From assembly GCA_963664705.1 (NCBI GenBank), contig OY761556.1:3232001-3296000 (forward strand): DNA of 64,000 nucleotides, in the 5' to 3' direction. Below the pieces are notes generated by a model, which saw only the letters and a program-made list of their open reading frames with translations, did not search any database and was not told the DNA's origin. Shown in pieces: positions 10,333 to 56,240 of this stretch. Within the stretch, counting starts at the first letter, position 1, and the number at the start of each line of letters is the position of its first letter. This stretch comes from Acidobacteriota bacterium. Its GTDB lineage: Bacteria > Acidobacteriota > UBA6911. The position numbers and the translations under genes are program-made.

Positions 10333-10410
10333 ATTCCAGATTCCAGATTCCAGATTCCAGATTGCAGATTTCAGATTCCAGATTTCGTCTTTATCTGAAA
10401 TTTGGAATCC
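10333..10410. repeat. Heptamer (ATTCCAG)n palindrome overlapping the hybrid kinase stop codon
   Basis: About 7 ATTCCAG-like units, a short spacer, then inverted units ATCTGAAATTTGGAATCC. Confidence 0.85.
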
Positions 10411-30073: not shown

Positions 30074-30343
30074 ATGAGCATCACGGTTCGGATTCCTTCG
30101 CCGCTTCGGCAATATACGGAATTGAAGTCAGAAATAGAGCTGGAGGGAAAGACGGTAGCGGAGGTGTTGGAGAGTTTTAAGGCTCGCTTCCCCGACGCCA
30201 GCAGCCGGTTCTTCTCGCCCAAAACCGCGCACTACATGAATCTTTATCTGAATGACAAGGATATCCGCACTTTGTCCAACCGTGAAACGCCGGTAGCAGA
30301 CAAAGATGTCCTCTCGATCGTGTTTGCGATTGCAGGGGGCTAA
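30074..30343 (+). CDS. MoaD/ThiS family sulfur carrier
   Basis: ITVRIPSPLR..., C-terminal AIAGG; RBS AGGAGG. Confidence 0.9.
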   Translation: MSITVRIPSPLRQYTELKSEIELEGKTVAEVLESFKARFPDASSRFFSPKTAHYMNLYLNDKDIRTLSNRETPVADKDVLSIVFAIAGG

Positions 30344-31283
30344 GGCCAAATTACGAATTACGAATTACGAATTACGAATGACGAATGAAGCAAATTCTAT
30401 TGCCGGACATTCGTCATTCGTAATTCGTAATTCGTAATTATTCGCTGAGGGCCCAGGCGATGGCGGCTTCGGCAAGGATCCTTGTGGTATCGATATAACC
30501 GCTTCCGCCCCGGCCTTGACCTCCCCTATAAAGGATATCCGCACTTTGTCCAACCGTGAAACGCCGGTAGCAGACAAAGATGTTCTTTCGATCGTGTTTG
30601 CGATTGCAGCGGGCTAAGGCTAAATTACGAATTACGAATGACGAATGAAGCAAATTCTATTGCCGGACATTCGTCATTCGTAATTCGTCATTCGTAATTA
30701 TTCGCTGAGGGCCTAGGCGATGGCGGCTTCGCCGAGTATCCTTGTGGTATCGATATAACCGCTTCCGCGCCTGCCTTGACCTCCCCTACAAAGGAATATC
30801 CGCACTTTGTCCAACCGTGAAACGCCGGTGGCAGACAAGGATGTCCTTTTGATCGTGTTTGCGATTGCAGGAGGCTAATGCCAAATTACGAATTACGAAT
30901 GACGAATGAAGCAAATTCTATTGCCGGACATTCGTCATTCGTAATTCGTCATTCGTAATTATTCGCTGAGGGCCCAGGCGATGGCGGCTTCGACAAGTAT
31001 CCTTGTGGTATCGATATAACCGCTTCCGCCCCGGCCTTGACCTCCCCTATAAAGGATATCCGCACTTTGTCCAACCGTGAAACGCCGGTAGCAGACAAAG
31101 ATGTCCTTTCGATCGTGTTTGCGATTGCAGCGGGCTAAGGCCAAATTACGAATTACGAATGACGAATGACGAATGAAGCAAATTCTATTGCCGGACATTC
31201 GTCATTCGTAATTCGTCATTCGTAATTATTCGCTGAGGGCCCAGGCGATGGCGGCTTCGGCAAGTATCCTTGTGGTATCGATA
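30257..31283. repeat. Tandem array of four ~260-bp units: moaD 3' end, (ATTACGA)n palindrome, racemase 3' end
   Basis: Units start AAGGATATCCGC at 30257, 30531, 30791 (with a 1-nt insertion) and 31052; they differ by scattered substitutions and heptamer count. Confidence 0.95.
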
Positions 31284-31948
31284 CTGAAGTAGCCCACCTC
31301 GTTAGGCTCAAAAGCCAATGGAACTTCCGTACACCCCAATATAACCGCTTCCGCACCTGCCTCTATCAGCCGGCGGCCGCACGATTGAAATGTTTCGCGG
31401 GTCAGCCGATTCTGCTCCCCGGCCTTAACCTGCCCTATCGCAGCATGGATCTTCTGCTGTTCGGCCTCCGATGGGATCAGCACCTCAATCCCATCCCTGG
31501 CAAAAGCGCGATGATAGATACCGCTATGCACGGTCCCCAGGGCGGCAATCAGGCCGACCTTGGTTGCATGCGGAAGAGTCCGGCGAACTTCCCGGCACGT
31601 TTCCTCTATCATATCCAGAAACGGAACAGTCACCTCGCGTTGAAGCTGCGGAAGAAAATAGTGGGCGGCATTGCATGGCATGGCAATAATCCCGGCGCCC
31701 GCTTTCTCAAGTACCCTTGCCCCTTCAATCATATATGGCAAAGGACTCTCTCCCCCTGCCGCGATGGCTTCCGTTCGATCCGGAATTTTGGGGTTTGAGT
31801 AAATAAGGACAGGGATGTGATCCTGGTCCTTAATTGCCGGAGTGAGATTAATAATATGTCGGTACAGGTCCAGAGTAGCTTCCGGCCCCATCCCTCCCAA
31901 AATTCCGACCATTCGGCCGGGAACAACGGCTTTCATAACATCTGACAT
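31226..31948 (-). CDS. Aspartate/glutamate racemase family protein
   Basis: GILGGMGPEAT, KDQDH, PCNAAH and LGCTE (two catalytic Cys); start 31948 or 31936. Confidence 0.92.
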   Translation of the reverse strand: MSDVMKAVVPGRMVGILGGMGPEATLDLYRHIINLTPAIKDQDHIPVLIYSNPKIPDRTEAIAAGGESPLPYMIEGARVLEKAGAGIIAMPCNAAHYFLPQLQREVTVPFLDMIEETCREVRRTLPHATKVGLIAALGTVHSGIYHRAFARDGIEVLIPSEAEQQKIHAAIGQVKAGEQNRLTRETFQSCGRRLIEAGAEAVILGCTEVPLAFEPNEVGYFSIDTTRILAEAAIAWALSE

Positions 31949-32279
31949 TTCATGATTATAGGACTGCCCGGCTCCGATTGCCAAAAAAGCATTTCAACCC
32001 ATCGGCCGGGCGAACGACTCCTGACCGGATCATTCCGTCGCTGCCGGGAACAGTGCAATCTGCCACCCCAAAATACCCTGTTTTTTGTTTGGCTCAAATG
32101 GCCCTAAGACCGTTATATAGTTAGCCCTGTTTTGCGCAAAGCAGGTATCAAGTGATAACTGCTTCATTAAATGCGCATTTGTGTCGATAACTATAGAGCG
32201 ATAGGCGGTGGAACCGGTCTACCCCCTCCGAAAAACCTTTTTTGGGGGAGGCGGGCCAGGGGAACCGTAAGGTAGCAAA

Positions 32280-40515: not shown

Positions 40516-40526
40516 GCACGGGGGGG

Positions 40527-40820
40527 CAGAAGACAGGAGTCAGGAGACAGGAGACAGCAAATCGGACTCCGCAGATACAGCAGTTTCCGCCCCTAATCGC
40601 GGCTGGATCCGCCGCTCTCGTTTGACTAATTCCAAAATCAACTCTGTAATTCTGTCGACCCATTCCTGCCCGCGCACACAGTTCCAATATACTCCCTAGT
40701 TCCAAATCCCATACCACTTGCAGCTTGAATGCCTCTCGGTACCTTATCCTTCCCTTTCTCTCCTGACTCCTGACTCCTGTCTCCTGTCTCCTGACTCCTG
40801 TCTCCTGTCTCCTGTCTCCT
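40527..40820. repeat. Inverted heptamer arms (CAGGAGW)n ... (CTCCTGW)n around a ~200-bp spacer
   Basis: About 4 units at 40527-40557 and about 9 inverted units at 40758-40820. Confidence 0.88.
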
Positions 40821-41057
40821 CTGTCCTTCGCTTCCGAACGGCTGCTATCCCGAAAAAAAAGTTGGCGATTTTGGCGCCTTATCCATTTGTTATTTGAACA
40901 GAAATGCTGATTTCCAACACACCAAGTGATGAAAACCAGCACGCAATAATCTTTAAAGCCAAAAAGGCAAGATGACGAAAAATGTAACAGTGGCGCAAAG
41001 CAAGCATTTGCAAGGCTTAAGCCACTTATGGATTTTTCCGTTGCTCTCAATCAGGAT

Positions 41058-55644: not shown

Positions 55645-55853
55645 CTGCGGATTGCGGATTGCAGATTGCGGAGTCAGGGGTAAATCCACAATCCCCAATC
55701 CGAAGTCCGCAATCAGTTGATCTCCACGGTTGCGCCGGCTTTGGCTAATCTGTTTTTGATGGCGTCCGCCTTTTTTTGTTGGTGTTCTCCAACGCGAATT
55801 AAGGATTGAGGATTGAGGGAGTTGGCCACAATCCCCAATCCGATATCCGCCAT
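55645..55853. repeat. Two heptamer palindromes flanking a diverged copy of the rplL 3' end
   Basis: (ATTGCGG)n..(CCGCAAT)n at 55645-55714, rplL-like segment 55713-55777, (ATTGAGG)n..(CCCCAAT)n at 55798-55853. Confidence 0.85.
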
Positions 55854-56240
55854 TTACTTGATCTCAACGGTTGCGCCGGCTTCCTCGAACTTCTTCTTGA
55901 TGGAATCGGCTTCTTCCTTGCTGACGCCTTCTTTGATCGGTTTGGGAGCGCCCTCAACCAGGTCCTTTGCCTCTTTCAGACCGAGGTTGGTGACTTCGCG
56001 GACGGCCTTGATCACGTTGATCTTCTTGTCGCCAACGGTGGCAAGGATCACGTTGAATTCAGTTTTTTCCTCGACCGGAGCGGCTGCGGCGGCAGCGCCT
56101 ACACCCGGCATGGCCATCGGCATGGCAGCGGCAGCGCTGATGCCATATTTATCTTCAAGGCTCTTTACCAGGTCCGAAATTTCCAGCATCGTTGCCTGAT
56201 CGATCCATTCCATTACTTCAATCTTTGTAATCGCCATCAT
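55854..56240 (-). CDS. rplL: 50S ribosomal protein L7/L12
   Basis: [25 protein letters not shown]. Confidence 0.98.

Follow-up and report, generated by a model that had tools for sequence, protein, structure and literature searches.

Anatomy of the moaD/racemase array

The window, i.e., the whole stretch of 64,000 nucleotides of Acidobacteriota DNA that was analyzed, contains a tandem array at positions 30257-31283 (period 260, 3.9 copies, score 1751 with Tandem Repeats Finder run on the 64-kb window). It is lodged between two tail-to-tail genes, a ThiS/MoaD-family gene on the plus strand and an Asp/Glu-family racemase gene on the minus strand (Table 1). Its four units of about 260 bp, which start at intervals of 274, 261, and 260 bp, bear out the four-unit array with periods of about 260 to 274 bp that the initial annotation had described here, and they are mutually 94.6-97.8% identical. 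The MoaD-like gene matches PF02597 with 40 bits (cut-off 22.5) and TIGR01687 with 37.9 bits, the latter under the cut-off of 49.5. Its product combines a ThiS-family match with a C-terminal GG, the two features expected of a sulfur carrier; the source genome (G000) holds five ThiS-family matches. The racemase reaches 265 bits against NF052483, the cysteate racemase CuyB (cut-off 190), and also matches PF01177.

Table 1. Features of the array and of its two parent genes (positions in the window)
Feature	Position	Strand	Basis or remark
Intact MoaD/ThiS-family gene, 89 aa, ends AIAGG	30074..30343	+	last 87 bp (30257-30343) open unit 1
Heptamer palindrome 1, 5 + 4 heptamers, 20-nt spacer 30388-30407	30349..30439	.	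sequence, folding
Silent racemase 3' end copy 1, 58 bp	30438..30495	-	sequence comparison
Linker 1: two racemase-interior remnants of the 58- and 63-bp deletions, then moaD-tail join	30496..30530	-	
Silent moaD tail, unit 2, AIAAG	30531..30617	+	
Heptamer palindrome 2, 3 + 4	30623..30699	.	
Silent racemase tail copy 2, premature stop; most diverged junction segment begins here	30698..30755	-	
Linker 2: 3 differences in 34 bp relative to linkers 1 and 3; 1-bp insertion adjoining	30756..30791	-	
Silent moaD tail, unit 3, AIAGG, S>L, four synonymous changes relative to the gene	30792..30878	+	
Heptamer palindrome 3, 3 + 4	30884..30960	.	
Silent racemase tail copy 3	30959..31016	-	
Linker 3, identical to linker 1	31017..31051	-	junction also in run X5
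Silent moaD tail, unit 4, AIAAG	31052..31138	+	
Heptamer palindrome 4, 4 + 4, abuts racemase stop codon	31144..31227	.	
Intact Asp/Glu-family racemase gene, over cysteate racemase CuyB cut-off	31226..31984	-	PF01177, NF052483
Racemase interior, source of first linker piece	31339..31358	-	
Racemase interior, source of second linker piece; far end of original duplication	31417..31438	-	

Each extra unit brings 87 bp of the moaD-like 3' end, the palindrome, and 58 bp of the racemase 3' end. This is the composition initially annotated, except that unit 3 carries 83 bp of the moaD-like end, after a 1-bp insertion, and that the racemase part is discontinuous. Indeed, the linker of about 35 bp is not foreign DNA. 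It is made of two further racemase pieces (31339-31353, extending to 31358 in unit 2, and 31417-31438), and the racemase copy consists of three segments, with internal deletions of 58 and 63 bp. The unit thus corresponds to about 390 bp, reaching 87 bp into moaD on one side and 213 bp into the racemase gene on the other, from which these two deletions have been removed. Microhomology amounts to 3 nt at the first deletion, to 1-4 nt within an imperfect 9-nt repeat at the second, and to 1 nt or none at the join to moaD. Since the deletion joins are common to all three extra units, these units would descend from one event.

Read in order, the MoaD tails translate to AIAGG, AIAAG, AIAGG (with S>L), and AIAAG, and the racemase tails to ILAE, ILGE, ILVE, and ILAE, in agreement with the initial readings. 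A Trp-to-stop change is found in racemase copy 2, and the silent copies include one stop and one frameshifting deletion. There are 3 base differences between junction segments 1 and 3, and for segment 2 the counts against these two are 13 and 11, so that the GG/AG alternation is one mutation copied once, rather than two variants.

All four palindromes have near-perfect arms, i.e., AT-rich tandem arrays of a 7-mer, around one identical 20-nt spacer. The unit 1 palindrome has predicted folding energies of -50.1 kcal/mol on one strand (z -10.5) and -54.9 kcal/mol on the other (z -13.1), none of 200 shuffles being as good, and all four beat shuffles on both strands (z -8.6 to -13.1). The promoter scan returned 2 sites for 2.6 expected, none of them within the array, while the terminator scan found no canonical terminator inside the array and one terminator-like site outside it. 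Rfam gave only a mir-70 match, far below the gathering score, which was rejected as a generic hairpin match, and an exact search of metagenome contigs with the palindrome core gave 0 matches.

The array is real. The source genome is assembled as one contig of 6.89 Mb and, in run X2, the unit-specific contigs reach depths of 19, 18.5, 21, and 23.9 for units 1 to 4, against 20 and 22.5 in the unique flanks and 74.4 in the shared palindrome core. Run X1 gives the same pattern for the pieces listed; it shares its sample with X2, and the assembly may come from that sample. In run X5, which stems from another sample and another study, a 93-nt contig covers the linker-to-moaD junction 31012-31104 with no differences. 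These single-copy depths and this junction dispose of the assembly artefact that had been envisaged. No contig among the short-read contigs listed spans the whole array, so that the order of the units rests on the single-contig assembly. As for the heterogeneity of tail alleles that had also been considered, the contigs of the GG unit stand at single-copy depth with no other letters listed, such contigs dropping rare variants and phasing only to about 31 nt.

Related genomes and the class of gene-tail arrays

The racemase search covered 41 genomes, and 21 genomes other than the source gave the moaD and racemase loci together. No tail copies are present at the gene pair in any of these 21 relatives; their assemblies are mostly fragmented, but every moaD/racemase locus is nonetheless contiguous across the interval. 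The comparison of this interval among related genomes, suggested by the initial annotation, leaves the array without counterpart at this gene pair. In the MoaD search of 30 genus genomes, extra moaD-tail matches were likewise found only in the source genome, and the C-terminus of MoaD is GG in all 21 orthologues examined. In one relative (G014), a single palindrome of the same heptamer lies directly after the moaD stop, with a different spacer, which indicates that a hairpin can exist at this stop without being amplified. The tail-to-tail pairing of a sulfur-carrier gene with a racemase that passes the CuyB cut-off is itself kept in the 21 other genus genomes, and three relatives (L002:2245-2940, L003, L010) have 616-695 bp between the two genes, likely holding an extra gene missing from the source genome.

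The source genome contains 215 runs of 7-nt periodicity, 194 of them intergenic. Arrays with a period of 130-390, organized around 7- or 9-mer palindromes, are numerous in it. Copies of neighboring gene edges occur in 13 of the 154 intergenic regions with 7-/9-mer arrays vs. 8 of the 2349 without (odds ratio 27, P 1.5e-11; regions of 100-2500 bp in the source genome, our own gene calls, and a motif list drawn up after the arrays had been seen). By length, the enrichment is seen for regions of 250-500 and 500-1000 bp; neither the shortest nor the longest class, nor the minus-strand pairs, reach significance. At least 5 of the 8 cases counted as having no repeat hold, on inspection, degenerate 7-/9-mer or REP-like elements. 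Regions with heptamers only carry copies in 4 of 112 cases (P 0.0015) and those with 9-mers carry duplications in 9 of 42. The 108 heptamer-only regions without duplication mean that the hairpin is insufficient, the event being enriched yet rare.

Two other arrays of the source genome have the same architecture as that of moaD, one at purM/rnc (3 x 238 bp) and one at mtgA/thiC (2 x 284 bp), and internally deleted flank copies are also found at C1:4472664 and C1:5929717. Automatic junction calls were usable for 4 of 14 loci, the others having badly placed anchors or an element at the join. The joins show 0-3 nt of microhomology in four arrays of the source genome (e.g., 0 nt at purM/rnc, about 0 at mtgA/thiC, and 3 nt at a kinase gene).

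Two nearby palindromes of the window's heptamer occur in 4 of the 30 genus genomes (G000, G043, G005, and G017). G043 has an independent array of 2 x 252 bp, 97.6% identical, which is built from the tails of two convergent genes, presumably a Memo-like gene and ruvC judging by their translations, and joined at an 8-nt microhomology. G005 and G017 were rejected as arrays, a small gene lying between their two hairpins; at both loci (L109 and L111) this gene sits inside an operon, with palindromes of the window's heptamer on both sides. The generality of the phenomenon beyond the source genome rests on this one case, G043, in relatives searched with the window's heptamer. Because such arrays collapse when short reads are assembled and give rise to false short ORFs, they are probably undercounted.

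Other repeats of the window were recorded on the way. At 55654-55915, an older 140-bp duplication, 73-74% identical, includes a heptamer palindrome and the 3' end of a gene that we take to be rplL, and appears as a decayed second case. Two other heptamer families are present at 40522-40827, as an inverted pair whose arms are about 170 nt apart, and at 10333-10384. Positions 1-84 belong to the end of a 15-copy repeat of 273 bp (G000:C1:3227925-3232084) that is likely protein-coding.

Gene-edge copies are found in 8 of 45 convergent regions with repeats vs. 4 of 275 without, in none of 721 divergent regions, and 19 of 21 gene-edge copies are 3' ends. This distribution would fit an accidental amplification that was kept by selection because serial hairpins terminate or insulate convergent transcripts better than one. 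The four palindromes, with their near-perfect arms and identical spacer, and units old enough to have diverged by 2-5%, would agree with such a role. We nevertheless regard it as unlikely: the 21 relatives do without the array, several of them with overlapping or nearly abutting moaD/racemase stops, the convergent bias also follows from the positions of gene ends and hairpins, and homogenization alone would keep the arms alike.

Origin of the array and fate of the silent tails

We favor, with moderate confidence, a reading in which the heptamer hairpin provoked a local replication or repair slip that produced four head-to-tail copies including both gene ends, the silent tails being by-products. 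The hairpin would have come first, as a dispersed repeat placed at two stop codons, where it would likely act as a two-way terminator or as an RNA 3'-end structure. A template switch near this hairpin would then have duplicated it together with both flanks. Two deletions at microhomologies of 1-4 nt may have arisen in the same event or soon after, before any further amplification, and slippage or unequal exchange would have brought the number of units to four. Sequence would since have gone on passing between silent and expressed tails, by exchange or by renewed copying of the latter, selection keeping GG at the expressed position.

The genome-wide class, with the purM/rnc and mtgA/thiC arrays and the independent case of G043, supports this palindrome-linked amplification. 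The initial annotation had proposed that the palindrome drives the amplification of the flanking gene ends; what stands of this proposal is the association, which is not causation, and the hairpin would be the cause only by inference. Joins of 0-3 nt, below what plain slippage would be expected to leave, speak against hairpin slippage in its simple form. The textbook route for such structures is hairpin cleavage by SbcD; the source genome has one SbcD match, under the family cut-off, and this route is thus without a clear enzyme. Moreover, units that are 94.6-97.8% identical must have persisted for long, and neutral instability alone leaves this unexplained.

An enzymatic origin has also to be weighed. 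In the source genome, heptamer arrays lie on both sides of all five PF05635 (four-helix-bundle) genes, with a separate family for each gene, and these families are the commonest heptamers of the genome. One of these genes, C1:235699-236052 (PF05635/TIGR02436), is bracketed by the window's family, which counts 37 arrays in the genome, mostly at gene ends; the 64-kb window itself contains no PF05635 match. In five relatives, 13 of 25 PF05635 genes have 7-periodic runs on both sides, vs. 2 of 605 small control genes of the source genome. Among the other genus genomes, homologues more than 50% identical to the product of C1:235699-236052 are found in 7 of the 12 with the repeat vs. 0 of the 17 without (P 0.0005, kin genomes not being independent). 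The flanks of these seven homologues carry a sister heptamer different by one base in five cases, are mixed in one, and match in one, which weakens an exact pairing of heptamer and protein. The three GxxExxY genes of the source genome are all flanked by 9-mers, arranged as in the heptamer families.

From these associations, the palindrome could be the gene-less shell of a four-helix-bundle cassette, the protein or a partner nuclease recognizing the repeats and starting a local copying that includes the flanks, with GxxExxY proteins playing the same part for 9-mers, whose regions are duplicated in 9 of 42 cases. TnpA-REP has been proposed, in the available text, to amplify BIMEs locally with their flanks (PMC3333891). 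We consider this protein-driven origin, the chief alternative to our reading, possible but doubtful. Indeed, five of the seven homologues carry the sister heptamer, 5 of the 12 repeat-bearing genomes have no close homologue, a nuclease activity for PF05635 was not found in print, no common cut-site motif is visible by eye at the joins, and REP-like elements of the source genome also adjoin duplications, which is compatible with any hairpin acting. A bolder proposal is that four-helix-bundle proteins and GxxExxY nucleases are partners in a RAYT-independent, REPIN-like system. Acting at their own 7- and 9-mer hairpins, nearly always at stop codons, they would repeatedly copy host 3' ends into arrays exchanging with the live gene. 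We advance this proposal as a speculation of low probability. If it were true, the heptamer repeats would gain a mechanism and become local engines of C-terminal sequence turnover.

At G000:C1:4472298-4473155 (L089), an intact GxxExxY gene precedes two copies derived from it, which are arranged in tandem and have internal deletions and 9-mer arms, i.e., a parent beside miniature derivatives. A 9-mer-armed element whose interior is similar to parts of a GxxExxY gene is flanked by direct repeats, about 40-110 bp long, of host sequence that is in most cases a gene end (G000:C1:3371433, 5237340, 5507756, 5547931, 2126809, and 6229701). These direct repeats resemble a very long and variable target duplication, with up to six tandem copies at C1:5193577. 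One Y1 transposase match (G000:C1:1439920-1440261) has REP-like repeats on its flanks, and a BIME-like composite array of related repeats lies at 1384399-1386027 (G000 C1).

The differences among the copies bear on what happened to the tails after the amplification. Where only some of the copies depart from the live gene, 13 of the 23 differences are synonymous vs. a fraction of 0.29 expected under neutral decay (P 0.005; third-position test, P 0.019). Codons with at least two changes were excluded from these counts, no ungapped copy was obtained for rplL, and misalignment affected two indel-bearing loci, almost wholly outside the 13/23 class. The excess persists when the moaD/racemase array is left out (7 of 11, P 0.018), this array alone giving 6 of 12 (P 0.10, not significant). 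The third-codon positions of the relatives are too saturated for polarizing the differences. A single duplication followed by decay does not predict such an excess, while repeated copying from the live tail or exchange with it does (rough expectation of about 0.43, with which the data are compatible, P 0.14). The silent copies thus likely exchange with the expressed tails or are re-copied from them, as far as these small numbers can tell, and the excess points to a traffic between live and silent gene tails.

This traffic touches the second proposal of the initial annotation, i.e., that the array is a reservoir of alternative C-termini. Recombination would move silent tails into the genes, switching the sulfur carrier off (GG to AG) or varying the racemase tail. 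Two of the three silent moaD tails read AG, the anatomy is such that AG would come to the expressed position by a crossover within the first 75 bp of the tail, and the synonymous excess does suggest exchange. What survives of the proposal is that tails seem to be exchanged over evolutionary time; an adaptive switch is very improbable. Indeed, arrays of the same kind lie at purM, rnc, thiC, and mtgA, i.e., at unrelated housekeeping genes, and this genome-wide class argues against a MoaD switch. The copies hold a stop and a frameshifting deletion, the GG is kept in all 21 orthologues, and the unit 1 contig stands at single-copy depth with no other letters listed. A swap would moreover delete units and be hard to reverse, and the two AG tails have one mutation in common.

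The mutation spectrum is ordinary and transition-rich. In arrays with at least three copies, the substitutions among units are C>T 51, A>G 36, A>T 13, C>A 11, C>G 10, and A>C 5, i.e., 39 transversions. Diversity-generating retroelements (DGRs) hold a silent 3'-end copy beside a hairpin and an accessory protein, Avd, to which the four-helix-bundle family is related. The array resembles them by its silent gene 3'-end copies next to a hairpin and by the Avd-like protein family of the source genome. It differs from them in that its differences have no adenine bias, no reverse transcriptase with accessory gene adjoins it, its targets are housekeeping genes, and copies of two genes are present. The spectrum, not being adenine-specific, excludes DGR-type mutagenesis, and DGRs were rejected on this ground. 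That no contig among those listed spans the array and that the source genome has one reverse transcriptase match could be invoked for an assembly artefact or for a DGR-like templated variation. This match, the only one to PF00078 (C1:5.76 Mb), lies 2.5 Mb away, the unit-specific contigs are at single-copy depth, and the junction is found in a second study. We give such an origin hardly any credence.

Palindrome-linked amplification with by-product tails thus remains our preferred reading, and the locus as such probably matters little for function. It is of interest as an example of a process in which the unit can be traced base by base and the link with the hairpin can be measured across one complete genome. 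Tandem REPIN clusters with flanks were reported without a mechanism, and heptamer repeats have long been a puzzle.

Comparison with known repeat systems

Inverted 7-mer arrays near stop codons are described in Xanthomonas and Nostoc (PMC4692102), Geobacter (PMC2700814), and Beggiatoaceae (PMC4679880), according to the passages available. The likeness with the present array lies in the intergenic 7-mer runs by stop codons, often in inverted pairs, whereas the heptamer here is another one and is not G-quadruplex-like; these passages mention neither a duplication of flanking gene ends nor a link with four-helix-bundle genes. A literature search over titles and the starts of abstracts, of incomplete coverage and exclusive of supplements, found no paper linking four-helix-bundle or GxxExxY genes to such repeats, and no description of gene-tail arrays at heptamer hairpins.

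REPs are defined by a 5' GTAG/GTGG head followed by a short GC-rich palindrome (PMC2817692, PMC3686654, in the parts available). The AT-rich heptamer arms of the array have neither this head nor a GC-rich palindrome. The one PF01797 match of the source genome is flanked by a different repeat, which is REP-like, and RAYT was rejected as the cognate enzyme for this reason. On the other hand, the palindromes share with REPs, REPINs, and BIMEs their organization in inverted doublets that are dispersed, intergenic, and multi-copy, as well as a local tandem amplification that includes the flanks. For eight REP clusters of E. coli, the available text reports no circular intermediates (10.1101/2024.07.17.603846).

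The closest systems are the REPIN clusters of Pseudomonas fluorescens SBW25 and the BIME-2 of E. coli. In SBW25, tandem repeats of near-identical REPINs with their flanks form 16 clusters in one genome, for which a second mechanism is needed and left unexplained in the passages available (PMC3116915, PMC3337134). The likeness is a tandem hairpin doublet with 5' and 3' flanking sequence (PMC3116915). The differences, as far as these passages go, are the heptamer-array arms, the lack of a GTAG/GTGG head, a four-helix-bundle gene rather than a RAYT, and flanks that are coding 3' ends with internal deletions, although Fig. S7 of the same paper (PMC3116915) may show gene ends among the flanks. With BIME-2 and atypical BIMEs of E. 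coli and their TnpA-REP (PMC3333891, PMC2817692, from the available text), the array has in common head-to-tail palindromic units, locus-specific linkers, and a local amplification after dispersal. It differs from them by having no REP consensus and no enzyme shown, and by a linker that can be traced to the two neighboring genes. With neither a REP head nor a cognate RAYT, the array is not a member of these families, but it works like the SBW25 REPIN clusters and BIME-2.
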